Assembly: GCF_024223415.1 (NCBI RefSeq) | Contig: NZ_CP100500.1 | Reading direction: 5' to 3' (one strand) | Source of the DNA: Escherichia coli | Lineage (GTDB): Bacteria > Pseudomonadota > Gammaproteobacteria > Enterobacterales > Enterobacteriaceae | DNA: 64,000 nucleotides | In this document: positions 27,196-53,413 of the stretch, piece after piece | Layout: every line of letters starts with the position of its first letter | How positions within the stretch are numbered: position 1 is the first letter of the stretch | The notes under the pieces: model-generated | Seen by the model: the letters and a program-made list of their open reading frames with translations, nothing else | What the model was told of the DNA's origin: nothing | Database searches by the model: none | Translations under genes and position numbers: made by a program

Positions 27196-30100
27196 CAGGC
27201 GTTCTCCTTATCTTGTGCAAAGAACGCCCAGGCCACTTTGTAGTCGTCTTCGCGATCTGGCTTGATAAACGGAGCCTGCCAGGTGACGGTGCGGCGCTCG
27301 CCTTCGTCGCTGCGGGTATAGTCATCAAAGGTGACGCTGACGGTACCGGTTTTCAGATGTTTGACATCATCCCAGCCGATGGCTTGATCGGTGCAGTCAC
27401 CGCCGGTCCACTCCGGGCTGTCGACGTTAAAGACAAAGCTGTTTTTCAGATCAGCTTTACGGGCGGTACGCGGCAGACCGACGCCCACCAGCCCTTTGCT
27501 TGGGGTAAAGATGATGCGGCCGTTTTGGTCGTACCAGGTGTCCGCTTCGTACTGGCGCATCACCGGGAACTGTACACGGTAAATGGTAAGCAGCTCTTCG
27601 AGAGTTAACCCCAGCGCCTGTGCCACCAGCACGTCGATTTCCACCAGCGCCTGACGACGACTGTAGTCGGAGCGTAAGGCGCAGTTACGCTGCCACTCTG
27701 GGGTCAGATTGGTGAAGAAATCTTGTGGCAGCAGCGGGAGATCGCGGCTCCAACGCTGGGTGTTGAAGTCTGGGGTGTAGCAGGATTGCCAGAGATCGGC
27801 GTAATCTTTCGTTAACACATTCAAAGCTAATGCTCTTGAGTTTGCACTCATTAGCTCAACATAAGGGAAGCCACGCAATGTTGATTCATAAACATCCGCC
27901 CGTCCTGTTGTTTTCAAATAAAAATCAGCCACTATTGAATGGCAAAATGCAGAGAAACTTAGCAGGTTTATTGGCTCTCTAAATGTTGTTGAGAGTACAG
28001 GGTGTATATGAGCAACGTGCTTTGGAACTATGCTGGATATCATCGAGCGTTCTGATGATGCCCCAAACATTCTCCGATTAACAAAACGATAATAATCCGT
28101 CACCTTCCTCGGCTCGTCTTCATCCTGCTCTTTCCACGAAACCCGTGGGGTGCGCTTTGCATACTCCTGTGCATCACATGCCGGAATGTAGTTAGTTCGC
28201 GGCAGGTAATCGTCGGGCAGGGTTAATAAATCAAGGCAATCATAATGGCTATTTGCCTCACAGAGAGCTCTTGGTGTCTTATTGAAAGGATTACCCACGA
28301 AGAAATGGGGACCAGACAATACCCATTGAGAAGCATCTTTTGGATACATTGTTTTACGCTCGATAGTGCCATCAATTTGCTGATTTGTTTCATGCCACAT
28401 TTCCAGAGAAAAATACTGGCCTTGCAAATCGCCTAATCGCTTCGGCTGATTGGCAAATTTTTCCAATACCGCGACAAGTTGCTCTGCGTGCAAAGCGGGA
28501 AGACGAGCCTGTAATGCTGGCGTGTCGGGTTCATCATACAAACGAGCAAATAAAGCTAGCTGCTCTTTCGTGACACGAATAAGCCTGGATTTATGACCTT
28601 TAGTATTCCATCGGCTATAGTAAACATCTTTTATATAACCTTCTTCCTTAATGCCACCAACCAATCCATCACCTGAATGCTCAAAACTCTCATCAAGAGT
28701 TGAAGGAATAAAAAGATTATTAATATTAATAAACTCCACGTCGTTCGATTTGGTCATAGAGTAAACATGTGTCCCAAATTTCATTCGACCGTGATCATTT
28801 GTTCCAACAAATAGAGAAAACTCATTTTGATATTGGCAATGTAGACGTAACCTTGGATAGATCTCTTCTCTGAAGAGCCCTCCCTTAGGATCGTCATATA
28901 CCCCCTCTGGGTGAACAAATCCTGCCACGCCTTTCTCTGCCCCCAGACGCCAGGCCTGAGGCAGGAAGCATTTATACAAGTTGGTCTGCACCCCGCGCAG
29001 TACCGGGTAGTTTTGCTGCGCATTGAGGAAGTTTTGCATCCCTTCACAGCCTTCATACTCGCTGCGCCAGGCCGCTTCCAGCGCCGGGATCTGGTTAAAG
29101 GTATCAATACGCAACGTTGCCAGCTTCGATGCACTCAGCTTACGCAGCACAAATTCCGGCTCGTAATCACCCAGCACGCCCGCTTCCTGCCATTCCACTT
29201 TCAGCCACGGCGGGTTTCCGAGCATCAGGTCAAAACCGCCGCGCTCGGCAAACAGGTCGCAGAACTCCAGATCCCAGTGGAAGAAACGGTGCTGCTTTCT
29301 CAGGGCATCGACAATCGCCAGACGCGGCAAATGGCGGAACAGCACATCGGTTTTCAGACGACCAGCAACGGAAAACAGCGAAGACTCTTCTCGCAGCAGG
29401 CCTTCTTCGGCAAACAGATCGCCAGTAGTGCGCTCCGCAACTTCAGTGACTTTTTCCGTAATCACAATCCCGTCGAGCAGGGTTTCAATCTCAAACAACC
29501 AGGTACCGCGATCCGGTAACTCATCGGCTTTGTCGATCGGCCAGAACCACAGCGCGCACCAGTAGTCCATCACCCAACGCAGCTTCTGGTAGGCGCTGTT
29601 ATCTTCAAGACGACCGCTAAAGGTTTCATCTTTACTGCTCAGCGAAGAACGCGTCTGCTCGCTGTTTTCTGCCGGCCACACCGGGTAGCTGTCGGCGGTT
29701 TTCAGACGTTCTGCTTTAAGTTGCTGGCGATAGGTGTTCCACAGTGCTTCCACCTTTTCGCTGATACGCTGCACATCAGCAATCTCATGCCCGGCAAAGC
29801 TTTTAATAAACTCTTTGCGCCAGCTGTCCAGCGCTTTGAAGTCATCCGGATAACGCTGCTTAACAGTTTTATCGCTGTAGTTAGCCATACCGCCGTCGGG
29901 CAGCAGGAAGTGGAAAATCTGCGTCTCTTCACGCGGCGTGTTCATCGCCAGTTCGACCGGCTCGCTGTTAAGCCAGCTAGGATCTTTGGCTTTTTTGTAG
30001 GTCAGTTCGCTCTTGTTGAACACCTGACGGCGCGCGCCCACCAGCGAGTTACCGCAGTGCAGCTGGTAACCAAACCACGGTACAAAGGCATCGCCACTGA

Positions 30101-32126
30101 TGGCGTTCAGCCACAGCGACACTTCCGCCAGCTCCACCGCCACCGGGTTTAAGTCCACGCCGAAAACATTGTTATCGGCAATGTACATTTTCACCCGCTG
30201 TAACTCCTGGGTGTAACGATCCTGCGGAATACGGCGACCTTCCGCCTGCTGCTTGTGGAACAGATACGCTTCCGCCAGCTGGTTGATGGCTTCGTTAAGG
30301 AACGCCGCGCTGCCCATCGCCGGTTCGCACACAGTGAGGTTTAAGATGGCGTCGGCTTTGGCGTGCGGATCGCTAATGGGATCAATCTGCTCCTTAAACA
30401 GTTCTTTCAGGGCATATTTAACCAGTGAGCGGGTCAGCACTTCCGGGGTGTAATAAGAGGCAGATTTCTCACGGTCGCGCCCGGCCATACGGTAGATAAA
30501 GCTGCCTTTGCGGTGAATGCGCAGACTGCCGTCTTTCTCGTAGACCTTCTCGTCTTCGTGGTATTTGCCAATCTCATCCTTACTGACGAAGTAACCTGTC
30601 TCCAGCTCGTTAAACTCTTCCCCGGCTTTCTTCACCTCGTAGAGATCTTCGCTGGCGAAGAATCCACGATAGGAGAGCAGCGCCTCATACACCGCACCCA
30701 ACTGGTTGATACCCAACTGGCGATAAGAAATACGTCCGCGGCGGTTAAAGCGCCCTTTGGCCGGGCGGCTTAACGACATCGCCTGGATAATCTGTTGCAG
30801 GGTTTCGTTACGGAATACCACGCGGTTAAGAATGCGCGTGTTGTTGGCATCAAACAGATGACTTTCCAGACGCGGGACGCTGAACTGATGACTATGGATG
30901 GTGATCCGGTCGCCGCTCTCCAGGTCACTCTGCATTTTCACGCCGCCGTTGTAGCCTTCGCGCACCAGTTTAAACAGCATATTCAGGCTGTCGTGGAAGT
31001 AGCGCCCGTTGCGATCTTCTTCGCTGGTCAGCGGGATCATCTCCAGATCGCGCAACGTTTCCAGACTGTAACCTTGCAGATAGGTTTTGGCTGTCATTGG
31101 CGCATAACCCAGCTCCGGGCGCGCTTCAATGTAGAACAGGAACAGCAGGCGGTACATGTAACGCAGACATTCGCGGCTCAGTTCATCCGGGTCCACCGCA
31201 CGGTTACCGGTATAGTTTGCCAGGCCACGGTCGATCAGATAATGCATCGCTTCGTTGCCCAGCAACTCAATGCTTTCGCGCAGGGCATATTTCAGATCTT
31301 CCGAAACACCAAACGCATGTTTGTGCGAATTGTCATCCAGCGAGTCAAGATAAGGTGCCCCACTGCCCGGCAGCAGAGAATCTTTATGTAACAACACCGC
31401 AGTCGCTTTCAGCGTATCCGTTTCACGACGGCTTAAAATCTCTTCAAAATCAAAACGTAGCAGACGGTTTTGCGCCCACTTAGTACGGTCCAGCAGCAAT
31501 AGCTGACGGTTACCGAGCAGCAGCACAAAACGCGGCGGTTCATTTTGGGTGAAGACCGCCGTAGAGAGCAGATCCTGCCAGCTGCGATATTCACCGTTGG
31601 CTTTTTTGCGCAGGCTGTCGCGCTTATGTTTGTCGGTATCCGCCGGGAATTGCGCGGTCAGTAAGGAGAGCGCCAGCGGATCCAGCGTTCCTTCTTCCTG
31701 ATCGTGTGCTTCAACAATCCACAGCCACGGGCTACCGTCAGTGCTGTTGTAACGCGCCAGTACCGGCAGCGGTGTATCGTCATCCAGCATTTGGATCTGT
31801 GGCGTAATTTCGTAGCCCAGCGCCTTTAACAATGGCTGCCAGCGATTACGTTGATCGGCCAGACGCTGCGGGATCTGACGCTGTTTTTCGTGCTCGGCAA
31901 GTTTGCGGAAAAACTCAGTCGCCAGACTGTTAAACTGGTTCCACGGAGCGCGGTATCCCGGCTCCACGTCTTTGCCCTGTTCACGAGCGGCACGCTCCGC
32001 TTCACGCGCTGCATTTTCCTTGGCTATCCAGGGTTCCAGCACATCGCGGATATCACTGGTGAAAACCTCACCCAAATAGTGGTTAGAGTAAAATTCGTTT
32101 TCGTTATTAATACCGACCAGCGCCAT
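27195..32126 (-). CDS. 1643-aa N6-adenine DNA methyltransferase (gamma-class; DrmMI/PglX-like)
   Basis: SAM-binding motif I …CEPAMGSAAFL… and catalytic motif IV …LGNPPWLKVEW… (NPPW). Its stop overlaps the start of the 2113-aa gene. Confidence 0.8.
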   Translation of the reverse strand: MALVGINNENEFYSNHYLGEVFTSDIRDVLEPWIAKENAAREAERAAREQGKDVEPGYRAPWNQFNSLATEFFRKLAEHEKQRQIPQRLADQRNRWQPLLKALGYEITPQIQMLDDDTPLPVLARYNSTDGSPWLWIVEAHDQEEGTLDPLALSLLTAQFPADTDKHKRDSLRKKANGEYRSWQDLLSTAVFTQNEPPRFVLLLGNRQLLLLDRTKWAQNRLLRFDFEEILSRRETDTLKATAVLLHKDSLLPGSGAPYLDSLDDNSHKHAFGVSEDLKYALRESIELLGNEAMHYLIDRGLANYTGNRAVDPDELSRECLRYMYRLLFLFYIEARPELGYAPMTAKTYLQGYSLETLRDLEMIPLTSEEDRNGRYFHDSLNMLFKLVREGYNGGVKMQSDLESGDRITIHSHQFSVPRLESHLFDANNTRILNRVVFRNETLQQIIQAMSLSRPAKGRFNRRGRISYRQLGINQLGAVYEALLSYRGFFASEDLYEVKKAGEEFNELETGYFVSKDEIGKYHEDEKVYEKDGSLRIHRKGSFIYRMAGRDREKSASYYTPEVLTRSLVKYALKELFKEQIDPISDPHAKADAILNLTVCEPAMGSAAFLNEAINQLAEAYLFHKQQAEGRRIPQDRYTQELQRVKMYIADNNVFGVDLNPVAVELAEVSLWLNAISGDAFVPWFGYQLHCGNSLVGARRQVFNKSELTYKKAKDPSWLNSEPVELAMNTPREETQIFHFLLPDGGMANYSDKTVKQRYPDDFKALDSWRKEFIKSFAGHEIADVQRISEKVEALWNTYRQQLKAERLKTADSYPVWPAENSEQTRSSLSSKDETFSGRLEDNSAYQKLRWVMDYWCALWFWPIDKADELPDRGTWLFEIETLLDGIVITEKVTEVAERTTGDLFAEEGLLREESSLFSVAGRLKTDVLFRHLPRLAIVDALRKQHRFFHWDLEFCDLFAERGGFDLMLGNPPWLKVEWQEAGVLGDYEPEFVLRKLSASKLATLRIDTFNQIPALEAAWRSEYEGCEGMQNFLNAQQNYPVLRGVQTNLYKCFLPQAWRLGAEKGVAGFVHPEGVYDDPKGGLFREEIYPRLRLHCQYQNEFSLFVGTNDHGRMKFGTHVYSMTKSNDVEFININNLFIPSTLDESFEHSGDGLVGGIKEEGYIKDVYYSRWNTKGHKSRLIRVTKEQLALFARLYDEPDTPALQARLPALHAEQLVAVLEKFANQPKRLGDLQGQYFSLEMWHETNQQIDGTIERKTMYPKDASQWVLSGPHFFVGNPFNKTPRALCEANSHYDCLDLLTLPDDYLPRTNYIPACDAQEYAKRTPRVSWKEQDEDEPRKVTDYYRFVNRRMFGASSERSMISSIVPKHVAHIHPVLSTTFREPINLLSFSAFCHSIVADFYLKTTGRADVYESTLRGFPYVELMSANSRALALNVLTKDYADLWQSCYTPDFNTQRWSRDLPLLPQDFFTNLTPEWQRNCALRSDYSRRQALVEIDVLVAQALGLTLEELLTIYRVQFPVMRQYEADTWYDQNGRIIFTPSKGLVGVGLPRTARKADLKNSFVFNVDSPEWTGGDCTDQAIGWDDVKHLKTGTVSVTFDDYTRSDEGERRTVTWQAPFIKPDREDDYKVAWAFFAQDKENA

Positions 32127-32128
32127 GA

Positions 32129-34987
32129 TTAACCCTCCGCTCCGGTGATAACAGCAATTACCTGAATGTAGGGTTCTTTTTCAGTCGTCATGGTGTCCTC
32201 AATCCATTCGATATAGCTGTCAAAATTGTGTTCGATTTCGCGTTGTCTCTGCTCTTTACGGCTCTGCTTGACTGACAATTGCTGTTTGTTATCGGCAAAA
32301 TCCAGCTCAAGTTGGCTCAACTGCCGCCCACGCAAAACGTCCAGCTTTTGCAGATGCTCATTCAGTTGCTGGTTAATGTGCGTTTCAAACGCATTCCGAT
32401 CATGGATGAATACCTCCCGGGCATGAGCAATAGCCGCTTCAAGTAAATCCTGCTGGCGTTGGTGATTACGATCTTTACCGCCGCTGTTAGTCAGCTTGTT
32501 ACTCAACTGCGGATGACGTTGTAAAAACTCAGCGAATGGCTGACTGCCGATTAGCGATTCACGGTTAAAGCTCACCACTATCCACGGGTTCACCATCGGA
32601 TGTGATTTACGGTTCGGGAATAACCCGGAAAGAATGAAGTGATCTTCATCGGGTTCAAGCAGGTATGGCAGACGGATAACTGGTGCCTGATGACGACCAA
32701 AAGCCGAAGAGATTTTATCGTCCAGCCACTGCACTACCGGGTTGATTTGCCAGAGATACTGCACATCGGGCCAGGCATGTTGCTCACCGCGAGCGCGCGC
32801 AATCGCGTCGGTGATGACGGTTTTATCCTGACTTAAATAGAGCTGCCAGTTCTCCGGGGCAATTTCAGGCGGTAGCTGGTTGAAGCGGCGGCGTAACTCC
32901 TCCGGAGCCACCAGCGACAAGGTATTATCAGGCAAGGTTTCATACTGGATAGTTTGACCACTGGCTTTCAGGTAACCCAATGCTCTTTCGCAGTACGCCT
33001 GTTCGCTGGCAAACAAGCTGGTGTCTGCTTCGGTGACCATTGAGGCATCGCTGGAAACCGCACTGCATATTTCGCCAAACAGATCGTGTTCGGCGCTTTC
33101 CGAGACGTTGCTGTTCAGCAGTTGATCAAACAGGCTGGCACCATCATCCTGCATCATGAACTCTGCAACCTGCTCTTCTTCCTCTTCCTGGGTAAATTTG
33201 CCGGTAAACTCCGAACTGTCCCCAATGTTCTTCTGCGCCTGTTCGTCTTTGTTGATCAACACTTCCAGTACGCGCATATCGCCATTGATCTGTGGTTCGC
33301 TGGCCTCAGTAAGCAGATAGCGGATTTGAGGCTGATGTTTTTGCCCATAGCGGTCAATACGCCCGTTACGTTGCTGGAATACCATCAACGACCACGGAAT
33401 ATCAAAGTGAATCATTTTGTGGCTAAGGTGATGCAGGTTGATCCCTTCAGATGCCACATCCGAACAAACCAGAAGACGCAACGGCGACTGCGTTTTACCA
33501 AAGGCTTCTACGGTTTCCATCAATACCGTATCGCCCTGATCGCCGCGCAGCGTGGCGATCTGGTCATCTTTCAATTTCAGATCCGCTCGCAGTTGCTGTT
33601 CGAGGAACTCCAGCGTTTTAATACTTTCGGTGAAGATCACCAGGCGATCTTCCGTGTTATTGGCTTTCCAGGCGAGGTCTTTTCGGATGGTGTCGAGCAG
33701 CAACTGGTATTTGCTAAACTGGCTGGCATCAATATTATTCAGCGCCAACAGCAATGACTCCAGTTCGTTGATCTGGCTCTGGCTATTATGATCTTTACGG
33801 CTCTCAAGACGCTTCAGACGATTCGCCACGACGCTGGCACACGCCATCGGGCTGGAAAATAGCGCTTTTTCGAGGGTTATCTTGAACAGACGACCTTTGT
33901 TAGACTGGGCCTGTTCATCGTCATCATCACGGAACTGGCTCTCAACCAGACGACGGTATGCTTCTTCTTCGGCACCGGATGCCAGGCGAGTCAATTTGAC
34001 AATATTGCGCTCGGGAAACTCGCCGGACATCTGATCTTTCACGTCTTTTTTGAAGCGACGGACAACCAGATTTTTATCGGCAAAGTCGGCGTATTCATAC
34101 TCTTTCGGGTTGGCGATCGCCGTCGGGTCAAGCATGTTCATCAGGCTGGCAAAACTTTCAGCCTTACCATCATGCGGCGTTGCTGAAAGCATAATCAGCG
34201 TATCGCTACGCCCGGCGAGCAGTTTTGCCAGTTTACTGCGTAACGAACTGGTTCCACGTTCTGCGACGTTATGGGCCTCATCAATGACAATAATATCCCA
34301 CCAGGCATTTTCCAGATGGTGACGATATTCAATGTCTTGTTTCAGCGTATCGATGGAGATAATGGTCTTGTCAAAATAGTGGAACGGGTTGTGGTTGGTT
34401 GGGATGCGGTTACGCACCTTTTGTAAACCAGCAGAATCCAGGCGGGTCAATGGGATCGCAAAACGGCTCCAGAACTCCTTCTGGAATTGTGTCAGCATCG
34501 ATTTGACCGCCAGAACCAGAATACGTTTTCCGCGCCCACGACGGATCAGCTCCGAAACCAGAATACCCGCTTCCAGTGTTTTACCCAGACCGACAGCGTC
34601 GGCAATGAGTATCCGCTGACGCGGTTGTGCCAGCGCCATCCGCGTAGGATCGAGCTGAAACGGCATGGAATCCATCGCCGCCAGATGACCAAAATGGACT
34701 TTACTGTCTGTCGGTACGCGTTGGCGTAACTGACTTTCGATATACAACTGCGCCGCTTGATAATTGGCGGATTCATCTTCCACCAAATGCGTTTTTGCGG
34801 GATCCAGGATCTCTACTTTTTGTTCCAGTTTGGTCAGAAATAACCCTTCTTTACCGCGCACAAGCTCTGAAATACCATCGCAGGTCAGCAAATACCCACC
34901 ATCACCACTGTCATCCGCCCGGCGAATACGCCATTCGGCATCACGAATAACCACCCGCATACCAGGTGCATAATTTTGCTTATTCAT
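32129..34987 (-). CDS. 952-aa SNF2-family helicase (DrmD-like), first gene of operon
   Basis: SNF2 Walker A LIADAVGLGKTLEAG, DEAH box IIVIDEAHNV, motif III LMLSATPHDG, C-terminal helicase motif …FQQRNGRIDRYGQ. It ends 2 nt before the methyltransferase start. Confidence 0.85.
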   Translation of the reverse strand: MNKQNYAPGMRVVIRDAEWRIRRADDSGDGGYLLTCDGISELVRGKEGLFLTKLEQKVEILDPAKTHLVEDESANYQAAQLYIESQLRQRVPTDSKVHFGHLAAMDSMPFQLDPTRMALAQPRQRILIADAVGLGKTLEAGILVSELIRRGRGKRILVLAVKSMLTQFQKEFWSRFAIPLTRLDSAGLQKVRNRIPTNHNPFHYFDKTIISIDTLKQDIEYRHHLENAWWDIIVIDEAHNVAERGTSSLRSKLAKLLAGRSDTLIMLSATPHDGKAESFASLMNMLDPTAIANPKEYEYADFADKNLVVRRFKKDVKDQMSGEFPERNIVKLTRLASGAEEEAYRRLVESQFRDDDDEQAQSNKGRLFKITLEKALFSSPMACASVVANRLKRLESRKDHNSQSQINELESLLLALNNIDASQFSKYQLLLDTIRKDLAWKANNTEDRLVIFTESIKTLEFLEQQLRADLKLKDDQIATLRGDQGDTVLMETVEAFGKTQSPLRLLVCSDVASEGINLHHLSHKMIHFDIPWSLMVFQQRNGRIDRYGQKHQPQIRYLLTEASEPQINGDMRVLEVLINKDEQAQKNIGDSSEFTGKFTQEEEEEQVAEFMMQDDGASLFDQLLNSNVSESAEHDLFGEICSAVSSDASMVTEADTSLFASEQAYCERALGYLKASGQTIQYETLPDNTLSLVAPEELRRRFNQLPPEIAPENWQLYLSQDKTVITDAIARARGEQHAWPDVQYLWQINPVVQWLDDKISSAFGRHQAPVIRLPYLLEPDEDHFILSGLFPNRKSHPMVNPWIVVSFNRESLIGSQPFAEFLQRHPQLSNKLTNSGGKDRNHQRQQDLLEAAIAHAREVFIHDRNAFETHINQQLNEHLQKLDVLRGRQLSQLELDFADNKQQLSVKQSRKEQRQREIEHNFDSYIEWIEDTMTTEKEPYIQVIAVITGAEG

Positions 34988-35210: not shown

Positions 35211-38200
35211 TTATCCAGCGATAATATAACTCCTAAGGTCATTACCCGGGGCAACAGCTCGCGCTCGCGTGTTTGCCAGCCGTTCAACTTGCTGCGGTAC
35301 TCGCAGGGCAAAATCAAAGAAGGTATCTTCAATACAGCGCCAGTAGCTAAGCCCCATGTCGAGCAGGACATAATGCTGACTGCCATCGCTGAAGGTGACT
35401 GTCAGTTCTCGTCCATGCTCCGTACTCTGGTTATCCCCCGTTAACCAGCTAATTGCTCCCGGCCACGCAGGCCCCAGATATCCTTCTTCAAGTAAAGTGG
35501 TCACAACCTGCTGACGATCTTCCTCATTAAGCCACGCGTTATAGAGAGCGTCGTGTTGGCGAGAGTTGTAATCCAATTTTTTGACGCAAACAGTGAGGCT
35601 GGCGCGTTCCGCCATTCCCTGTTCAACCAGCTCGGTTAAGATTTCACCTAACAAACGCGCCGTGAATGGGCTATTAAGATAACGATCGCTGTACTCAACA
35701 TGCGTTATCTCTTTGTGGCGGGTAAATGCCTGCTTCCAGCCAGCGTGCTGTTGCGTGACTAACGACCAGAAACGCGAACCAAAACCTTCCAGCGGCCCGT
35801 CCAGTTGTTCACAGAGATTGATGCGCACCGCCCCGGTGGGTAAGGCGGGCAGTAAATCTTCTGCACTTAAGGTCTGACCCGAGAAGTTTTTTCCGGACGT
35901 TCCTTTAAGTGTCACTACTGGTGAAGACGCACTTTGTCCCCATAATTCACCAGGGGCAACGGTAGCGCTGTCGTCTGCGGCCCACTGTTGGCTTTGCCCT
36001 TCGCGAGTCACCTGCGCAAGCCAGCGCCCCTTTCCTTGCATGAGTTGCGCAGTGGCAATGGATTTCACTTGTAAGCGTCCTCCCGGCATCGCCGCCAACG
36101 CGGAAAGCTGATGTCTGGAGCTATCAGTTAAGTTTTCCAGCGGCGTGGCCACCAGCAACTCAACATTCCCACCGGAGGAGGCAAACTGGAGCAACTCTTT
36201 AAATAATGGCCATTGGGCAAAGTCCCACTGTTCCTGCGGCCCCGCAAGAACCAGCGAGCAGGAGTCATAAATCTCGCTGTTCAGGCATTGCGCAATACGT
36301 AAACTCAGAGGGTTAGTTTCAACCCGGCTACCATCGCCGAAGTACTGATATTCTGGCGCGAGGTTAAGTCGCTGCAACCGTACATTGGTAAGCAGGGTTA
36401 ATGCATGGTGACGATCTAATCTGTTGACATAATGCTGACTGTCGTAGCTGAGCAAGCAGTGGTGACAAAATTTATCGCAACTGCAATCGAGCAATTTTCT
36501 GGCGTAATTAAAGACATCAGCCCAATGGTCGATCAATTGCACTGCATAACCTGCACCACCCGCATTATTGTCGTATATGAAGATGGAATATCCGGTATAG
36601 CCATTGATATCGCGCGCTTGCTGCGTCGTCACGCCCAGCTCAGTATTTTCGATACCCAATTTATGCGCTAACCCTTCACGCAAAGCGACCGCAAGGGAAC
36701 GCGCGGCAACCTCATCACGGATCAACAGGCCATTATCATCATTGAGTTGCAGCTCAACCATATCTGTACGACTGCTATATCCCAACCACAGATCTTTATG
36801 CACATGACCGTGGCACAATTTATTGCTCCCCTGACGATCGTTACTGCCCCCTCGCAACAGGTAATGCGTATTTTCCCGCTCTGGGTTCTTTAGATTTTCA
36901 GGGGTACGCTGGGGTTGAGTTTGAGATTCTGCCCGACCACATGAGAGGCAAATTGCGTAGCCGTGCCCAAATTCCCCTTCACTGAAGTGGAACAATTCCC
37001 CACTATGGCTAAAACGGTAACGTCCTAGCCCAGCATCGGGTAAAGAAACCCACACCGAAGACGGTACAAGAACACGTGGATCTTTCCAAGGAAGTTGTGC
37101 AGGCATGGATACATCATTATGTGCCTGATAACGAATATCTGTCGCAAAACCAACAGGCTGTAAATAACGCTTCACATCAAGTTGCTGTATATCCGCTTTG
37201 CAGTGACTACATTCGACAGGACGGGTAGTACTGGTTGCCCCCGCACCACATTTACGGCAATGCCAGAACCACGGAATGTGATGATCGCCTGACAGCTCCT
37301 GCCCGCTGGCAAGTACCTTGCCAAGCATAATGCCCGAGGAACGATATACTTTTCCGCCCAATACCACATCTGCACCAGGCGCATACTCGCGTAATGCTGT
37401 AGGTAGATCACGGCTGGGCAATTTTTCAATACGACGAGAAAAGCTTTCTCCCCCTTCATTAGGGTCAGCCTGAGTAGCTTTTATTGCACGACGTTTTTCC
37501 AGCTCATCTGCCGTCAGATAATTGAAATTGACGACGCCAACCGGGAAACCATGCCCCGGCAGGAACGCTTCACTAATGAGTTTAGAAAACAGATATGCAC
37601 CGCGATAATCACGAAGCTGATAAGCGATGGCTTTACCTGCTGGCGTTTCTTCCCACGCGCTGTTATCCGCCTTCAACGCTTCGATATTTTCCAACAGTAT
37701 CGCAAGTTGGCTTCTCCAGCGGATATCAACCTGCTGCATCATTGCTTGTGTGCGGGTCAAGAGCTGGGTTGCCGTCAATGACTTCAGGACGGTTCCCTGA
37801 GTAAGGCGTTTAAGTTTATCCGCCAGCTCATCGGCCTGGTGATTTAACCAATGAAGAAAACGAAGACACTGGCTCTCATCACCTTCAAAGAACCATTTGC
37901 AACTCAGTTTTGTCGCATCAGGTACTTCAGCTCGTAAAAACAGACCTAAAACCAGGGCATTAACATGTCGTTGAACAATACTACTGCTCCCAAAACGAAC
38001 CCGTGGCGCACTGGCAGTAGTGTTGAACGCCCAGAGGGGGTCTTTGAATACCTCCATTCCATGCGCCGTGTTTTTACATAACGTAATGGCAGCAGATGCA
38101 CTCTCTCCACGACGCCCCGCGCGACCTGCACGCTGCAAATAATTTGCCGGCGCTGGAGGAACGTTGTTCATTGCCACCAAACTCATACCACCAATATCCA

Positions 38201-38693
38201 CCCCCATCTCCATGGTCGTGGAACAGTTCAGCACATTAACTTTGCCTGACTTAAATTGTTTTTCATTAAACTGGTTCTGCTCAGGCGTTCTCTGCGCAGA
38301 GTGTTCCTCCAGACGATACCAGCTATCTTTCAGGGCCAGTCGGTCGCTGCGAGTAGACCATAATCCTTCCTCGCGGGCATGTTGAATCAGCGCATTACTT
38401 TCCAGCCACTCCAGACGTTCTTCTCGGGCGATTTCTCCACCACCAGACAAACGCCAGTGACGTACAGGAAGCTCAGGCATTTCAATCAACACTGCTTTTT
38501 CAGGTGCAATTTCTTTGCTACCCGGCAAATACGGAGAGTATCCCAGCAACGTGACGTCTAACGCACGTCGAGTATAGGGGCAACGCCACACTTGCTTTGG
38601 ACTGTAAAATTCAGCCTGTTGTTTAATATCCAGCTGATAACCCGACTCAAACTGACGTAAGCAGGGTCGAATTGCATCCCAGACCTCAATCAT
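35211..38693 (-). CDS. C-terminal segment (1160 aa) of a DruE-like giant helicase; frame open upstream to the A7 tract at 38830-38836
   Basis: Helicase motif VI …ANYLQRAGRAGRRGE… near its N-terminus (matching the C-terminal lobe of the upstream ORF), then Cys clusters (CRKCGAG…CSHCKAD, CLSCGRAES, CSCDKFCHHC). Architecture parallels the 2113-aa protein. Confidence 0.7.
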   Translation of the reverse strand: MIEVWDAIRPCLRQFESGYQLDIKQQAEFYSPKQVWRCPYTRRALDVTLLGYSPYLPGSKEIAPEKAVLIEMPELPVRHWRLSGGGEIAREERLEWLESNALIQHAREEGLWSTRSDRLALKDSWYRLEEHSAQRTPEQNQFNEKQFKSGKVNVLNCSTTMEMGVDIGGMSLVAMNNVPPAPANYLQRAGRAGRRGESASAAITLCKNTAHGMEVFKDPLWAFNTTASAPRVRFGSSSIVQRHVNALVLGLFLRAEVPDATKLSCKWFFEGDESQCLRFLHWLNHQADELADKLKRLTQGTVLKSLTATQLLTRTQAMMQQVDIRWRSQLAILLENIEALKADNSAWEETPAGKAIAYQLRDYRGAYLFSKLISEAFLPGHGFPVGVVNFNYLTADELEKRRAIKATQADPNEGGESFSRRIEKLPSRDLPTALREYAPGADVVLGGKVYRSSGIMLGKVLASGQELSGDHHIPWFWHCRKCGAGATSTTRPVECSHCKADIQQLDVKRYLQPVGFATDIRYQAHNDVSMPAQLPWKDPRVLVPSSVWVSLPDAGLGRYRFSHSGELFHFSEGEFGHGYAICLSCGRAESQTQPQRTPENLKNPERENTHYLLRGGSNDRQGSNKLCHGHVHKDLWLGYSSRTDMVELQLNDDNGLLIRDEVAARSLAVALREGLAHKLGIENTELGVTTQQARDINGYTGYSIFIYDNNAGGAGYAVQLIDHWADVFNYARKLLDCSCDKFCHHCLLSYDSQHYVNRLDRHHALTLLTNVRLQRLNLAPEYQYFGDGSRVETNPLSLRIAQCLNSEIYDSCSLVLAGPQEQWDFAQWPLFKELLQFASSGGNVELLVATPLENLTDSSRHQLSALAAMPGGRLQVKSIATAQLMQGKGRWLAQVTREGQSQQWAADDSATVAPGELWGQSASSPVVTLKGTSGKNFSGQTLSAEDLLPALPTGAVRINLCEQLDGPLEGFGSRFWSLVTQQHAGWKQAFTRHKEITHVEYSDRYLNSPFTARLLGEILTELVEQGMAERASLTVCVKKLDYNSRQHDALYNAWLNEEDRQQVVTTLLEEGYLGPAWPGAISWLTGDNQSTEHGRELTVTFSDGSQHYVLLDMGLSYWRCIEDTFFDFALRVPQQVERLANTRARAVAPGNDLRSYIIAG

Positions 38694-38755
38694 TAAGTGG
38701 TTAACTAACGATTTCCAGTGAGCCTGCTCAGGTTGTATTGCCGGAAAGACTGCGA

Positions 38756-41533
38756 TTAATAGCTTAATGACCCGGTTATAATGGCGATCGCGTATTTGTG
38801 GCCAAAGTTGATCACGTTTCTGCCCTTTGTTTTTTTATCTGGCCCCTGGAGCATTTTTACCGGGAAACGTGCCCCCATCCAGCGAGGGTATTGCTCGTTT
38901 TCGTAAAAAACGGCACTGTTTTCACGGATAAAGAAATCAAGAGTAATCTTCAATAAATTACGCCATTCCGCTAATTGCTTATCGGGATCGGGTAATAATG
39001 TCTTCCAGTCCTGCGGGCAGGTTGTAACTTTATCAATAAATGGATAGTGAATGGCTACCAGACCCAGACTTTCGAGGGTCCAGGCATTTTTAGGGCGGCG
39101 ACCAAACTCGCTGTATAAACAAAAATCTGCAAACTGTTGTTTAGTAAGATCAAGCCCAGACAATTCTTTAAAACTGCCTCTCATTCTATCGGCAAGGTCC
39201 ACACTGCCAACCAGCTGTTCAGACAGCGTTTGCCATGACATGGTTTTCTTCTGCTGATTGCCAGAGTTAACCTGAAGTATTTGCATCGCTTCAGCATGCT
39301 CCGGGCTTAAGGAACTCACCATCGGCTCAATAATTTTAAGTGACTGAATGTCCGCCGGGCTAAGCTCCTCATTCGCAGCCATCGCTTTTTTCAGCGCGTC
39401 GATGGAATTTTTTAAAGGGAGGACAGAAAACTGGCTAATAACTTTCTCTAACAGTGCACAGTGTGCCGGGCTGAGTTTTGCTGAAGGCTCTGTAATATTT
39501 GCCAGCTCCTGGTAACAAAGAGCTCGCAACGTCGCTTTATCGGCATCCTGCTGTAAGCGGGCTGAAATGCGAGCGGTACCCTGACGCGAATCCGTAAAGG
39601 TGAGCAAGCGTCGACCATTAAACGGTCCTAACTGCTCTTCTCTTGTTTGCGGTAATGGAGAAAACTCCAGCAGAGTAGGAATAATTTCATTTAAAAAAAA
39701 GGGCGCGCCGAGCCGAAGCGGACGGAATAAAGGATTATTTTTCCGTTGAGTGTCACCACAGCAAACACAAGCAAAGGAGTTATTGCGCCCCTCACCTCGA
39801 GATTCCGGTCTTAACAGGTTTATTTCATAGTGCTTTTGCGCTTCACTATCAATTTTCCCCGCCGTCGTTTCTTCCAGTGAAATGATATATTTTTCACCAT
39901 CGCTCGCAATCAGACGATCAAATTGAGAGTTATTGTCTAATTCGTCGTTGTCTTCATCTTCAGAATAAACATCTACATCAAGAGCAAACTCATCCACTTC
40001 GGCAGCGGCTGGTTGCGCTACCAACCAGTTCGTTCCATCACCGCGCATCTCCTCTTTGGCAGACAAATAAGCTGAACCACACCCGGAGCAACGTAAAACT
40101 TCAAATACCGGCGCTCCACAGTCACAATATTGGCGCTGCTCAAACCATACCTGACCAAATGGCCAGTCACTCTGATTTAATTCATGTGCTTTATGTGAGC
40201 ATTGTTTGTTTGAACATGCCCATAGACCCGCCAGTGTTCTGATAAACCCATGCATACGTAATGGCGTAAAAGCCAGTTCACCTTCTCGCGATCTTGCCAT
40301 TAGATCGAGGAGTTGCAGTAGCTCACGGTGATTAATATCTGGCCAGGTTCTTCTGGCAACATTGAGCAACTCACTCAAACGTACTGCCTGCCGTCCGGGA
40401 TGAGTTAACGCCTGACGCAATTGCTGGGCCACACGGTAATGACAAAGCTGTTGGTAAAGATCCTGAGGGCTCAGGGATTTAAGAGAAGTTAAAGATGTGG
40501 GGTATTCATGACGAATCAGCGACTCCGATACCCGCGGTATTTGTCGATAACCGCGAACCACTTTGACATCACGTTCTGTAACGCCCGCGAGATCAGCGAC
40601 AAATTTAGCAAGCTCCTTATTACCTTCAGGAGAGTCTTCACCAATAGTGGCAGAGGTCGCGATAATCTGCACAGGTTTATCTGTGCCGGGTCCAACATTG
40701 AAAGCCTGCATAACACGACGTAAAAGCAGCGCTAACTCAGCAGCCTGAGAACCAATATAACTATGGGCTTCATCCAGGACGATATACTTTAACATCCCCT
40801 GAGACTTTTCGATGATTGGGGCATCTTTACGACGAATCAGCATATATTCCAGCATGGTGGTATTCGTCACCATGATGGAAGGTGGTGCTTCATAAATGGC
40901 TTCCCGACTCAAAGCTTGTTCAGGTACTTTCAACTGATCTTCCTGAACTTCGTATTTGGTATGCCGGGTTTCGCCATTATATAGCGCGAAGCGTATTTTC
41001 CCCTTAAATCCGCGCGTCCATTCGCGAAGCCGCTCCTGTTGGCTGTTAATTAATGCATTTAACGGATACAAGAAAATAGCTTGTGTCCCTGTTAGTGACT
41101 GGCGGGTCGATTTTTGCTGACGAATAAGATCTTCCAGAACCGGTACCATAAAGCATTCTGTTTTCCCGGATCCCGTACCGCTGCTCACTAACAAGGATTT
41201 TTTGTCTTCCAGAATCGTTCGCCACGCAGTAAGTTGATGACGAAATGGCACTGGCGCTTTGCTCAATGCATCAACCAGCGGGCTGGAGATCAGCTTGTCC
41301 CGCAAATCCTCCATTGTTTCATCCGCAGGCATCCAGCCGAATGTACTTTCGAATACCGGGTCTGCAAGCAGTGACCCCTCCTGACCGGGAGGCTGAAAAT
41401 ATTGTGATTCCAGATAATGAGTCAACGACTTGCTCCGCAATGCCAACTGACTTACCACCGACCTCACCGCACGCTGATGAAGCTGATTTAGAAGTGGCGC
41501 ATAATGCAGTTGCTGAACGTCCATCAATGACAT
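38756..41533 (-). CDS. N-terminal segment (925 aa) of a DruE-like giant helicase; ends 2 codons... stop shortly after an A7 tract
   Basis: Motif I VSSGTGSGKTECFMVPVL, motif II VLDEAHSYIG, internal Cys clusters as in the 2113-aa paralog. It is in a different frame from the downstream 1160-aa ORF by exactly one nucleotide. Confidence 0.7.
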   Translation of the reverse strand: MSLMDVQQLHYAPLLNQLHQRAVRSVVSQLALRSKSLTHYLESQYFQPPGQEGSLLADPVFESTFGWMPADETMEDLRDKLISSPLVDALSKAPVPFRHQLTAWRTILEDKKSLLVSSGTGSGKTECFMVPVLEDLIRQQKSTRQSLTGTQAIFLYPLNALINSQQERLREWTRGFKGKIRFALYNGETRHTKYEVQEDQLKVPEQALSREAIYEAPPSIMVTNTTMLEYMLIRRKDAPIIEKSQGMLKYIVLDEAHSYIGSQAAELALLLRRVMQAFNVGPGTDKPVQIIATSATIGEDSPEGNKELAKFVADLAGVTERDVKVVRGYRQIPRVSESLIRHEYPTSLTSLKSLSPQDLYQQLCHYRVAQQLRQALTHPGRQAVRLSELLNVARRTWPDINHRELLQLLDLMARSREGELAFTPLRMHGFIRTLAGLWACSNKQCSHKAHELNQSDWPFGQVWFEQRQYCDCGAPVFEVLRCSGCGSAYLSAKEEMRGDGTNWLVAQPAAAEVDEFALDVDVYSEDEDNDELDNNSQFDRLIASDGEKYIISLEETTAGKIDSEAQKHYEINLLRPESRGEGRNNSFACVCCGDTQRKNNPLFRPLRLGAPFFLNEIIPTLLEFSPLPQTREEQLGPFNGRRLLTFTDSRQGTARISARLQQDADKATLRALCYQELANITEPSAKLSPAHCALLEKVISQFSVLPLKNSIDALKKAMAANEELSPADIQSLKIIEPMVSSLSPEHAEAMQILQVNSGNQQKKTMSWQTLSEQLVGSVDLADRMRGSFKELSGLDLTKQQFADFCLYSEFGRRPKNAWTLESLGLVAIHYPFIDKVTTCPQDWKTLLPDPDKQLAEWRNLLKITLDFFIRENSAVFYENEQYPRWMGARFPVKMLQGPDKKTKGRNVINFGHKYAIAIITGSLSY

Positions 41534-48753: not shown

Positions 48754-49032
48754 CTTTGTAGACAGGAGACAGTCACAATGAATAAAACAATAAATTGATG
48801 TCGCACGCGCCGATGGGCATGGCGGGTAATGTAACTTTTGTACACAACGGCAAGGCTTATGTTACTGGCGGTGTTAACCAGAACATCTTCAATGGCTATT
48901 TTGAAGATCTCAACGATGCTGGAGAATATTTAGCAGCTATAGACAAGATCAATGCCTATTATTTCGACAAAAAAGCAGAAGATTATTTCTTCAATAAGTT
49001 TTTGTTGTCTTTTGATCCCTCAACACAGCAAT
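48754..49032 (+). pseudogene. diverged nanM remnant (first ~37 bp of nanM fused to an internal ~240-bp nanM segment), preceded by a nanC-promoter-like GGTATA repeat at 48687-48700
   Basis: 48754-48790 matches 15079-15115 (gtagacaggagacagtcacaatgaataaaacaataa). 48791-49032 matches 15460-15700 at roughly 90 percent identity by eye. Same orientation as the intact nanM. Confidence 0.8.
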
Positions 49033-49107
49033 GGATCTTCACTTGCAGGCTTGAACAGCAGAAAATTTGCGAGCATGATCGCAATTATTTCACTGCCAGG
49101 GATATCA

Positions 49108-49980
49108 ATGGCTTCCAGTAAATCGCTACAGCAGGCAATTGCCAACATAAAAATCTGGCACAAGGGTGAACAGCGCGCGCCGCATAAGCCATTGTTATTG
49201 CTATACGTATTAGCGGGATACCTGAATGGACATCCACGCCTTTTCGATTATGGATCGGAAATCTACGAACCTCTGCACAGTTTACTGGAACGTTTTGGGC
49301 CACAGCGTTCACAGTACCGACCTGATATGCCGTTCTGGCGATTACAAGGCGACGGATTCTGGCAATTACACAATGCCGAGCTTTGCTCAACAGCAGGGAG
49401 CAGCCGACAACCGCCAGTGAAGGAACTGAACGAATACCACGTTGCAGGCGGTTTCGATGAACAGCACTACGCCCTGGTAACCGGCAATAAAAAACTCATC
49501 AATACTCTGGCGCAACAGATACTCGAAGCGCACTTCACCGAGAGTATTCAGGAAGAAATTGCTGACGAGCTGGGTTTTGATCTCCAGCAAATCCGTAAAC
49601 AGCGCGACCCGTTATTTCGCAAAAATGTATTACGCGCTTATAACTACCAGTGCGCGATATGTGGCTTTAATATGCGCCACGACGACACCACCGTCGCGCT
49701 GGAAGCGGCGCATATAAAATGGAAACAGCACGGCGGTCCTTGTGAAATTCCTAATGGCCTGGCGCTTTGCGCAATTCACCATAAAGCCTTTGATAAAGGA
49801 TCGATTGGCCTGGATGAAAATATGCGGGTACTGGTCTCGGATGCGGTAAACGGCGGAGGGATCGTTGAGAGATTATTCTGGGATTTTGACGGGAAAACTA
49901 TTGCGTTGCCGCAGGTGCGTAAAAATTACCCTTATGAGGGGTTTGTGGAGTGGCATCGGGAAGAGGTTTTTAGGGGGTGA
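49108..49980 (+). CDS. HNH endonuclease with unidentified N-terminal domain (candidate modification-dependent restriction enzyme)
   Basis: C-terminal HNH motif YQCAICGFNMRHDDTTVALEAAHIKWKQHGGPCEIPNGLALCAIHHKAFD. The start is taken at ATG 49108 (MASSKSLQQAIANIKIW) with AGGGA RBS, because the ORF-track start at 48952 lies in the nanM remnant. Confidence 0.6.
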   Translation: MASSKSLQQAIANIKIWHKGEQRAPHKPLLLLYVLAGYLNGHPRLFDYGSEIYEPLHSLLERFGPQRSQYRPDMPFWRLQGDGFWQLHNAELCSTAGSSRQPPVKELNEYHVAGGFDEQHYALVTGNKKLINTLAQQILEAHFTESIQEEIADELGFDLQQIRKQRDPLFRKNVLRAYNYQCAICGFNMRHDDTTVALEAAHIKWKQHGGPCEIPNGLALCAIHHKAFDKGSIGLDENMRVLVSDAVNGGGIVERLFWDFDGKTIALPQVRKNYPYEGFVEWHREEVFRG

Positions 49981-50024: not shown

Positions 50025-50204
50025 GTGCAGGATCTTGCCGCTAGTTTACAACTCGCCTTCGATAGCGGCGCAAAACGTGTTCTGTTGCCGATATCCTCGG
50101 CTATGGATATTCCAACAGTTCCGGCAGAGTTGTTTACCAAGTTTCAGGTAAGTTTTTACTCAGAACCGGTTGATGTGGTTTATAAGGCGCTGGATGTGAA
50201 TTAA
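50025..50204 (+). pseudogene. possible 3-prime remnant of a Lon-like protease gene (BrxL-like C-terminus)
   Basis: Short frame encoding …GAKRVLLPISSAMDIPTVPAELFTKFQVSFYSEPVDVVYKALDVN*, which resembles the extreme C-terminus of Lon-family proteases from memory. No upstream coding sequence remains. Confidence 0.3.
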
Positions 50205-50537
50205 CACATTCCTCAGCTTATTTACAAAAGGATTATTCCCATTTGATATAATATCAGTGCCAATTTACTTTTTTCAATGGAATATATCTCGGCTAAATAA
50301 CAATAAAACTTATCGCTAATTGATTAAATAAACAATTTTCTAATTCATTTCACCACCTTTGATATAGAAATTGATGGTGTTGTCGCTGCCATTGCTTATG
50401 GTGATGATAAAATCCACGTTTCTGGATCGTTGCGTAGAAAATCATCACTACCTTGATATTTTGATGCGATATGATCATACCGTTCCGTAGTACCAATTTC
50501 AATTTCAGGCTAAACCCCAACATTAAAAAAATTAGAG

Positions 50538-50579
50538 TTATTCACTGATTATATTATCAATAATATAATCAGTGAATAA
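50538..50579. repeat. 42-bp near-perfect AT-rich palindrome (20-bp arms, 2-nt centre)
   Basis: ttattcactgattatattat-ca-ataatataatcagtgaataa; all 20 arm positions pair. It lies ~25 bp downstream of the stop of the 682-aa minus-strand ORF. Confidence 0.8.
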
Positions 50580-50602
50580 CATGGACTATATAATAAATTG
50601 CT

Positions 50603-52651
50603 CTAATCATTTCCCTTACGAATATATGGGCCAAAAGCCCAAGAATCATAATAAGGGTGATGGACTAGTTTTTCATTAAATCGAACACTATAAGTTAATT
50701 TTTTTATATTTTTACGTACAGCATTAATACTGGGCAAAGAGGAAAGATAATCTATAAACTTATCGATAGTGATTTCCCCTTCGCAACACTCAAACCCATC
50801 AATGATATTTTTCGCCATTTTTCCATTTTCATTTGTTTGATATATCACTCCAGGTATTCGTTGAAAAAAACTAGATAATGCATATTTGTCCGCTACATAT
50901 GTATCATCCACATGATATTTCCCACCGAGCATAGTTGTAGTAACAATAAGCTTATACACACCTTTGGGTTGCCATGTTGATGGTAGTTCGAATTCTTTAA
51001 TGATCACATCAAGATGATTAAGATAATGTTCAGAAATTCGATTTATTTGTTGAAAATAAGAACGCATAAATTTATTATTATGATCATGTATTAATGAGCT
51101 ATCTCCAACGATGTTACACATTTGCTGATAGTATTTACCATAATATATTGGTTGACCATTTGATTTTAGTTCTGTAAAAATCAAACAATCATCCAGGAGA
51201 ATCACGCAATCGCACTGATAATTAGCATGAGCATCAATTGGAGAAGCTTTAATCCCCGCATCACGAACTTGTTTTATAAATTGTTGCTCATGAAATCGCC
51301 CTTTACTTGCTTGAGAAATTTTTTTGGAACCAAATAATGACATTAGAGAGCGAGTCACTGAGCTATTTGCTATTAATGCAGGCATTAAGCATAAACCGTC
51401 CATACAGGGAATAAATGGGCAATCATTAAGATCATGTGATTTTGAATTGAAGGTAAAATAATCTATCAGTTTTTTTGCTGCATCTGCTGCAATCCCCTTA
51501 CGTTGAAAGAATGATAACCAACTCTCACGGCTTTTTATGATCAGCCAGCGATCCAACTGTAGGGGTATAGGTTTTGTCGATGAAAATCTTTTGCTCATTT
51601 CTTCTTTAGATAACTCGACTAAACATTGATAAGCGTGCACCCAATTAAATAATGATATATTCCCATATTCTTCATGAAGGTCATCAGGAGACATATTTTC
51701 CAACTCGCTTAGATGAAATGAGCTAAAAACGCCATCAGAATTTAAGTAAGATGGCATATGATCCTTTACCCAACTATTTAGATGAAAATGTTTGTTACTA
51801 AATTCATGAACTTCGCTATATAGATGTGACGCTCTCATCATTAGTCTATTTCTTGCAATCTCATAATCTCGGTATAAACAAAAACTATCAACCTCAAGAG
51901 AGTAAATGTTATTATCCAATTTTGTAAATACTGCACTACTTAGTCTGAAAAAGTCTCTTACTCTGCTTAATGAGTCAAAAACATTCCACTCATTAAGGTA
52001 CCCTCCCATTGAAAGCAAGGTTTGTTTATTCACACAAGAAGTTAGTTTCAATGGCTCATGAGTCCGTAAATAAGAAAATATTCTTCCGGTGTAATTGGCT
52101 ACCTCATCAAATGCCCTATCGATAACTCGAAAATATTCGATATCAGGTTCAGCATGAATATTAATATTTTCAGAAACGATAAATAATGGAAAAATCCTCT
52201 TCATTTTTTTAGGATCATTGACCACAACCAAGGATGATAATGATGATAAAAACATCTCACAAAACATGATGAGATTAAGTATTAATGCATGTGATTTTTT
52301 TGTATTTTTACGCCAAATACCAGCACATTTTGTAGCCGCAAAGAAAGAATTATTTATATCATGCATAATTTTACATTGACTCTCGAACTCAGAAATTAGT
52401 TCAATGTTATCAGGAAATGAGTTTACTAGCTCATTAATACATTTTTTGAATGTATTGTTATACTCAACTTCAGTCTGAACTGAAAATCTATTATAATAGA
52501 TGGAAGATATTCTCAGCACATCCAAGGCGATATCTATACTAATATCATCTCTTTTTATGTACTCACAAAAAAAAGAACAAAACTGTTTCGGGTCGTTAGC
52601 AAGATTACTAATTCTAGTGGTATCATAAACTTTTTCCATTTTTCCATACAT
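50603..52651 (-). CDS. 682-aa hypothetical protein, very AT-rich, possible C-terminal PD-(D/E)xK-like patch
   Basis: Long uninterrupted ORF in the most AT-rich stretch of the window, adjacent to leuX. No recognisable P-loop. C-terminal segment …YQCDCVILLDDCLIFTELK… has the hydrophobic-D…E-x-K spacing of PD-(D/E)xK nucleases (weak, by eye). Confidence 0.6.
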   Translation of the reverse strand: MYGKMEKVYDTTRISNLANDPKQFCSFFCEYIKRDDISIDIALDVLRISSIYYNRFSVQTEVEYNNTFKKCINELVNSFPDNIELISEFESQCKIMHDINNSFFAATKCAGIWRKNTKKSHALILNLIMFCEMFLSSLSSLVVVNDPKKMKRIFPLFIVSENINIHAEPDIEYFRVIDRAFDEVANYTGRIFSYLRTHEPLKLTSCVNKQTLLSMGGYLNEWNVFDSLSRVRDFFRLSSAVFTKLDNNIYSLEVDSFCLYRDYEIARNRLMMRASHLYSEVHEFSNKHFHLNSWVKDHMPSYLNSDGVFSSFHLSELENMSPDDLHEEYGNISLFNWVHAYQCLVELSKEEMSKRFSSTKPIPLQLDRWLIIKSRESWLSFFQRKGIAADAAKKLIDYFTFNSKSHDLNDCPFIPCMDGLCLMPALIANSSVTRSLMSLFGSKKISQASKGRFHEQQFIKQVRDAGIKASPIDAHANYQCDCVILLDDCLIFTELKSNGQPIYYGKYYQQMCNIVGDSSLIHDHNNKFMRSYFQQINRISEHYLNHLDVIIKEFELPSTWQPKGVYKLIVTTTMLGGKYHVDDTYVADKYALSSFFQRIPGVIYQTNENGKMAKNIIDGFECCEGEITIDKFIDYLSSLPSINAVRKNIKKLTYSVRFNEKLVHHPYYDSWAFGPYIRKGND

Positions 52652-53328: not shown

Positions 53329-53413
53329 TGGTGCCGAAGGCCGGACTCGAACCGGCACGTATTTCTACGGTTGATTTTGAATCAACTGCGTCTACCGATT
53401 TCGCCACTTCGGC
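53329..53413 (-). tRNA. leuX: tRNA-Leu (anticodon CAA)
   Basis: Reverse complement reads GCCGAAGTGGCGAAATCGGTAGACGCAGTTGATTCAAAATCAACCGTAGAAATACGTGCCGGTTCGAGTCCGGCCTTCGGCACCA, with anticodon loop TTCAAAA and a T-run downstream. Confidence 0.95.

Follow-up and report, generated by a model that had tools for sequence, protein, structure and literature searches.

The coding sequence at 49108 to 49980 of this 64,000-nucleotide stretch of Escherichia coli DNA, the whole of which is referred to here as the window, raises the question of what a solitary HNH nuclease in a defence island recognises. A preliminary description had seen a clear HNH motif behind an N-terminal domain that it could not assign, and had likened the arrangement to modification-dependent restriction enzymes. 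Our analysis makes it very probable that the gene product is a solitary restriction endonuclease of the SprMcrA/EcoWI type that depends on DNA modification and has two domains, a sulfur-binding domain (SBD) that reads phosphorothioate (PT) modifications and an HNH nuclease; we refer to the protein below as the PT endonuclease. The open reading frame, family membership, residue conservation, and genomic context were established directly, and the SBD and HNH folds were predicted.

Gene boundaries and domain architecture

The PT endonuclease CDS (49108..49980, + strand) was defined by its open reading frame and translation, by the NCBIfam model NF045808, and by 100% nucleotide identity to an annotated CDS in E. 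coli Combat11I9. The frame runs uninterrupted to 49980 and specifies 290 aa plus a stop codon (33.18 kDa), and all of the sequence strings quoted in the preliminary description (IKIWHKGEQRAPHKPLLLLYVLAGYL, MPFWRLQGDGFWQL, CAICG, AAHIKW, and NGLALCAIHHKAFD) are present in the product. RefSeq holds the identical protein as WP_000168561.1 under the name "phosphorothioated DNA-binding restriction endonuclease"; the exact protein and the enzyme family are thus already known, and public E. coli genomes annotate the gene likewise. A mechanical ORF call begins earlier, with the ATG at position 48952. The start at 49108 is backed by NF045808, where residues 6-289 fall on model positions 2-284 of 284, as well as by RefSeq, which gives an 873-nt CDS with identical ends in genomes carrying the same gene. 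A putative Shine-Dalgarno motif, AGGGA (49098-49102, + strand), can be read from the sequence, with 5 nt between it and the ATG, and also favours this start.

Of all the steps in the explanation developed here, expression has the least support. A promoter scan between zorE and the ATG found no sigma-70-like promoter on the + strand, the sole feature being a weak hairpin at 49067-49084. Expression of the PT endonuclease may therefore depend on read-through from zorABE, which is a plausible source of transcription.

NF045808 ("phosphorothioated DNA-binding restriction endonuclease"), which has a curated cutoff of 180 bits, matches the protein from end to end at 438.8 bits (E=7.1e-132). Pfam-A, on the other hand, detects HNH_2 alone (PF13391; residues 182-236, E=1.1e-9), which bears out the HNH motif seen earlier in the C-terminal half, and it reports no domain in the N-terminal half. 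This silence is probably why the N-terminal domain had looked unassignable, and a view based on Pfam only would wrongly suggest that the domain is unknown. In a single-sequence search of the PDB, residues 5-142 match the SBD of ScoMcrA (5zmo, E=6.4e-8). A family profile built from 110 homologues and searched against the PDB retrieved the SBDs of ScoMcrA (5zmm, E=1.1e-25), SprMcrA (7ccd, 1.4e-16), and Hga (8h0l, 1.4e-9), together with the HNH domain of TagI (6ghs, 4.3e-11) for the C-terminal part. AlphaFold2, run on the family alignment, gave a model with a mean pLDDT of 95.8 and a pTM of 0.91, in which the N-terminal domain adopts the SBD fold. PADLOC returned generic "HNH" and "mREase_IV" matches, which are consistent with this assignment but uninformative.

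Four independent lines, including the family model, the PDB matches, and the predicted structure, agree that the N-terminal domain is the SBD of PT-dependent restriction enzymes. The earlier statement that it could not be assigned therefore holds for Pfam-A and is superseded by NF045808, the PDB profile matches, and the predicted fold; the proposed reader-plus-HNH architecture gains support, with the SBD as the reader. A comparison with modified-base reader domains had also been suggested, and in it the ScoMcrA, SprMcrA, and Hga SBDs match whereas SRA does not. An SRA domain was likewise sought between the SBD and the HNH domain by Pfam, PDB profile, and fold comparison without a match, so that the architecture is not of the ScoMcrA type. 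The identity of the N-terminal domain as an SRA or 5mC reader was rejected on fold evidence.

The SBD, a winged-helix-like reader of Rp-phosphorothioate DNA, spans residues ~1-145 (49108..49542, + strand). It is joined directly to the nuclease domain by a helical linker of about 25 aa, placed at residues ~146-170 (49543..49617, + strand) from the secondary structure of the AlphaFold model, whose pLDDT falls to 83 in this region, around residues 161-170. The HNH nuclease domain occupies residues ~171-290 (49618..49977, + strand) and contains C182/C185/C221, H202, N216, and H224/H225.

Predicted sulfur pocket and catalytic site

In ScoMcrA, the sulfur cavity has P165 as its floor and H116, R117, Y164, and A168 as its walls; R117, a Lys in most homologues, forms a salt bridge to the phosphorothioate, and the S187-RGRR191 loop reads the bases (PMC6224610). 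P165, H116, R117, Y164, and A168 align to P75, H26, K27, M74, and R78 of the PT endonuclease. The codons of H26-K27, the equivalents of the cavity-wall and salt-bridge pair H116/R117 (PMC6224610), lie at 49183..49188 (+ strand), and those of M74-P75, the equivalents of the lid Y164 and the cavity floor P165, lie at 49327..49332 (+ strand). The segment aligned to the base-contacting loop S187-RGRR191 is G97-S-S-R-Q101 (49396..49410, + strand).

The His, basic residue, and Pro expected of a sulfur cavity are present as H26, K27, and P75, which are conserved in 102/110, 109/110, and 109/110 homologues, respectively. The lid is more variable, being Y in 61, F in 10, and M in 6 of the 110 homologues; the PT endonuclease (Met74) and the E. 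coli W protein discussed below both have Met, which is not the majority residue. Since Y164 is conserved in only a subset of homologues and Y164M strengthened PT-DNA binding in ScoMcrA (PMC6224610), Met74 is compatible with function. The base-contact loop columns are hypervariable across the 110 homologues. Loop 34 of the PT endonuclease is basic (R67, R71) and resembles that of SprMcrA; an E156R/D157R mutant of ScoMcrA with a comparable loop 34 charge gained GpsAAC recognition (PMC7470945). In the HNH domain, which has the catalytic His, Asn, and His plus Cys ligands of the motif, C182, H202, N216, and H224 are invariant among the 110 homologues, and conservation is at least 90% at C185, C221, and H225. 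Nothing in the sequence suggests an inactivated enzyme.

Our account of PT binding, cleavage geometry, dimerisation, Mg2+ use, sequence context, and biological role draws on characterised homologues. By this analogy, the SBD would dock on duplex DNA and accommodate the Rp sulfur of the phosphorothioate linkage in a small hydrophobic cavity, with P75 as its floor and H26, K27, and M74 as its wall and lid. K27 would form a salt bridge to the phosphorothioate, while the variable loop G97-Q101 would read neighbouring bases in the major groove. In the nuclease domain, H202 would act as the general base, with N216, H224/H225, and a Cys-containing metal site. The enzyme is probably dimeric and would cut both strands at a fixed distance of a few base pairs, on one side of the modified site. 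Incoming DNA from PT-modifying (Dnd+) donors, namely plasmids, dnd islands, and phages grown on such hosts, would be cleaved. Because the island contains no dnd or ssp genes, the DNA of the host is presumably unmodified and safe from the PT endonuclease.

Defence island and distribution of the gene

The PT endonuclease lies at the leuX end of an island bounded by nanCMS (~14.3-17.2 kb) and a tRNA-Leu(CAA) gene (53329-53413), which the flanking genes ahr, idn, and yjgR identify as leuX. The island order is ARMADA II-like genes, Druantia III, Zorya II, a nanM fragment, the PT endonuclease, a BrxL remnant, and a 682-aa ORF. This is an O-island-172-type defence island (ARMADA II, Druantia III, Zorya II) as known from EHEC, and the earlier placement of the gene among defence systems holds, with Zorya II (ZorA2, ZorB2, and ZorE) immediately upstream. 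The paper describing the OI-172 island defines a nine-gene zor-dru-arm locus and mentions neither phosphorothioate nor a PT endonuclease (bioRxiv 10.1101/2025.09.22.677730).

The gene had also been described as stand-alone, with no adjacent methyltransferase, and this is confirmed: the sole methyltransferase in the window is ArmB of ARMADA II, 17 kb away. The 64-kb window contains neither dnd nor ssp genes, nor a partner methylase, as expected for a modification-dependent enzyme, and the PT endonuclease is in this respect a solitary nuclease whose neighbours include no cognate modification genes. Clusters of dnd genes occur near SBD-HNH genes in <3.6% of cases (PMC7461809).

The ARMADA II-like block comprises four genes (18743-34987, - strand): a GajB/UvrD-like helicase (18743-20857, - strand), a 2113-aa DruE-like helicase, a 1643-aa type IIG/DrmMI-like methyltransferase, and a DrmD-like SNF2 helicase. 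Residues 2021-2096, at the C-terminal end of the 2113-aa DruE-like helicase, are similar to the ZorE C-terminal tail (PADLOC E=5.9e-9; NCBIfam ZorE E=3e-4). Druantia III is represented by DruE3 and DruH3. Its helicase gene, druE (35211-41533, - strand), is split into ORFs of 925 and 1160 aa by the loss of 1 nt from a poly-A run (A8 to A7) at ~38837, relative to the single 2104-aa CDS of EC1515; the split could be a pseudogene, homopolymer slippage, or a sequencing error.

The PT endonuclease is flanked by gene remnants on both sides. Between it and zorE lies a 245-nt internal fragment of nanM (48791-49035), which is 92.7% identical to part of the full-length nanM of the window (15451-15695), ~33 kb away. 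In strains without the defence island (P276M, K-12), the endonuclease gene or its remnant is found just after nanS, so the nanM fragment looks like an insertion or rearrangement scar. Downstream is a 59-aa C-terminal remnant of BrxL (50025-50204, + strand; TIGR02653 positions 617-675 of 675, E=2e-23), which suggests that a BREX system once lay at this site. The 682-aa ORF between the endonuclease and tRNA-Leu (50603-52651, - strand) has no NCBIfam match and no significant Pfam match, and PADLOC gives only a marginal hit to PDC-M29B (E=0.001); it is a "hypothetical protein" in EC1515 and frameshifted in Combat11I9. Just past its 3' end, at 50537-50580, is a near-perfect, AT-rich palindrome of 44 nt (20-bp stem, 4-nt loop) followed by a T run, which overlaps promoter-like hexamers on both strands.

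A megablast search with the gene gave matches in 4859/5426 complete E. coli genomes, with at least 80% of the gene covered in 1706/5426 (~31%). The exact flanks are shared by only 100 genomes. The alleles are mosaic, in that the match in some genomes is limited to nt 1-161, 21-268, or 449-873, at 89-95% identity. Among the genomes that match only 11-61% of the gene, K-12 was the one examined for truncation, and its copy is truncated: a frameshifted stub between nanS and yjhR. The allele studied here is intact in many genomes and 98-100% conserved in unrelated lineages, such as O157:H7, whose allele has a different C-terminal end, and the commensal P276M, which carries the same allele directly after a nanS remnant; the allele of E. 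coli W adjoins the leuX integrase. The gene is not tied to Zorya. Among 1.84 billion cluster representatives searched at the protein level, 502 clusters matched at E<=1e-30, most of these full-length at 280-320 aa, and the family is large and widespread.

Relation to EcoWI and other modification-dependent nucleases

EcoWI, an E. coli SBD-HNH enzyme, is a Mg2+-dependent dimer that cuts GpsAAC/GpsTTC at N7/N6 (Lutz et al. 2020, PMC7461809). In vivo it abolished transformation by dnd+ plasmids (PMC7461809), and it is in use as a PT-mapping tool in EcoWI-seq (PMC9521924). Its accession, strain, or sequence is printed in neither PMC7461809, with its supplement, nor PMC9521924. E. coli W encodes a 291-aa "phosphorothioated DNA-binding restriction endonuclease," WP_000199891.1, the gene for which adjoins the leuX integrase, and the computed mass of this protein (33,410 Da) equals the 33.4 kDa predicted for EcoWI (PMC7461809). 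On the basis of the enzyme name and the mass match, WP_000199891.1 is most likely EcoWI.

Over its full length, the PT endonuclease is 76% identical and 87% similar to WP_000199891.1 (~69 aa differences), with identities of 74% in the SBD, 68% in the linker, and 82% in the HNH domain. The two proteins share the same SBD-HNH architecture (290 aa here versus 291), the M-P lid/floor and H-K pairs, the HNH residues, a leuX-island neighbourhood, and a stand-alone gene without dnd. The base-contact loop is one residue longer here and differs by several substitutions (STAGSSRQPP versus STSG-SRQPP, with R100, Q101, and P102 of the loop and a positive loop 34 in common), and two C-terminal residues are absent from the window protein. 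With 76% identity to the inferred EcoWI protein, the PT endonuclease falls short of sequence identity with EcoWI itself; judged by sequence, it is a diverged allele or isoschizomer candidate of EcoWI. Given that the family, the fold, sulfur recognition, and the 76%-identical EcoWI have been characterised and that RefSeq already names the protein, the locus carries little weight as a discovery. What is gained is that the reader domain is now firmly assigned, beyond the reach of Pfam alone, and that an OI-172-type island carries a PT-dependent nuclease beside zorE that is absent from the island's published description.

The sequence context that the PT endonuclease would read is likely GpsAAC/GpsTTC with Mg2+, by analogy with EcoWI. 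Five active SBD-HNH homologues with only 27-28% identity to EcoWI all have this specificity (PMC7461809), and the same context is accordingly the best guess for the PT endonuclease. That an enzyme of this same family should instead read another PT context (e.g., GpsGCC, GpsATC, or CpsCA) or be promiscuous is unlikely, but it is the alternative that deserves most weight. The base-contact loop differs from that of the E. coli W protein, so the context could differ from that of EcoWI; the SBD is only 74% identical, the loop aligned to ScoMcrA SRGRR has the extra residue noted above, and small changes in loops or charge shift the context specificity of SBDs (PMC7470945, PMC6224610). The uniform specificity of the five distant homologues, and the R100, Q101, P102, and basic loop 34 held in common with the E. 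coli W protein, count against such a shift. A somewhat more speculative and less probable extension is that the allele group departs from EcoWI in PT context or cut geometry; if so, the mosaic alleles found at the nan-leuX hotspot would represent PT readers undergoing diversification. By the same extension, the O-island-172 defence island could have in this gene a fourth active component that has been overlooked. Should its specificity differ, this common EcoWI-like allele would be a candidate tool enzyme for the mapping of PT sites.

It is improbable that the PT endonuclease is a silent or decaying remnant, with an intact but unexpressed or nonfunctional gene at the eroding edge of the island. 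Decay of this locus does happen, as the flanking gene remnants (the nanM fragment and the 59-aa BrxL C terminus) and the K-12 pseudogene indicate; a promoter-like site immediately upstream was not found by the promoter scan, and the many E. coli genomes matching only 11-61% of the gene by megablast could hold diverged alleles or truncated copies. The 290-codon frame is nonetheless full-length and keeps every conserved pocket and catalytic residue, the Shine-Dalgarno motif is good, the gene follows zorE on the same strand at a distance of 540 nt, and the protein is 98-100% identical in distant lineages, with 1706 of the 5426 genomes retaining at least 80% of the gene. Least probable of these alternatives is a function other than PT reading, whether as a McrA-like enzyme directed at base modifications (5mC/5hmC) or as an accessory nuclease of Zorya II. 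The HNH domain does resemble those of TagI, VcaM4I, and EcoKMcrA, and the gene directly follows zorE on the same strand; an accessory role in Zorya was rejected because the same allele, or the same gene, occurs in genomes without Zorya.

Among known systems, TagI, VcaM4I, and EcoKMcrA are base-modification-dependent HNH enzymes, whose readers (SRA/PUA-like domains or the McrA N-terminal domain) take modified cytosines rather than backbone sulfur. ScoMcrA, the type IV enzyme of Streptomyces coelicolor (5zmm/5zmn/5zmo), has 561 aa, with an extra N-terminal head and an SRA domain (5mC/5hmC) between the SBD and the HNH domain; the window protein lacks both. Recognition by ScoMcrA is confined to GpsGCC, and its loop 34 is negatively charged, whereas that of the window protein is basic. 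The E. coli SBD homologue of Liu et al. (2018) was considered as a match to the window protein and rejected: its critical Pro is at position 482 (PMC6224610), so it is a different, larger protein. SprMcrA, an SBD-HNH enzyme of Streptomyces pristinaespiralis (SBD structures 7cc9/7ccd/7ccj), is ~18% identical to the window protein in the SBD. It requires Mn2+, its cleavage distance varies, and its catalytic motif is an H-N-R variant (PMC7461809), in place of which the PT endonuclease has the canonical H-N-H.
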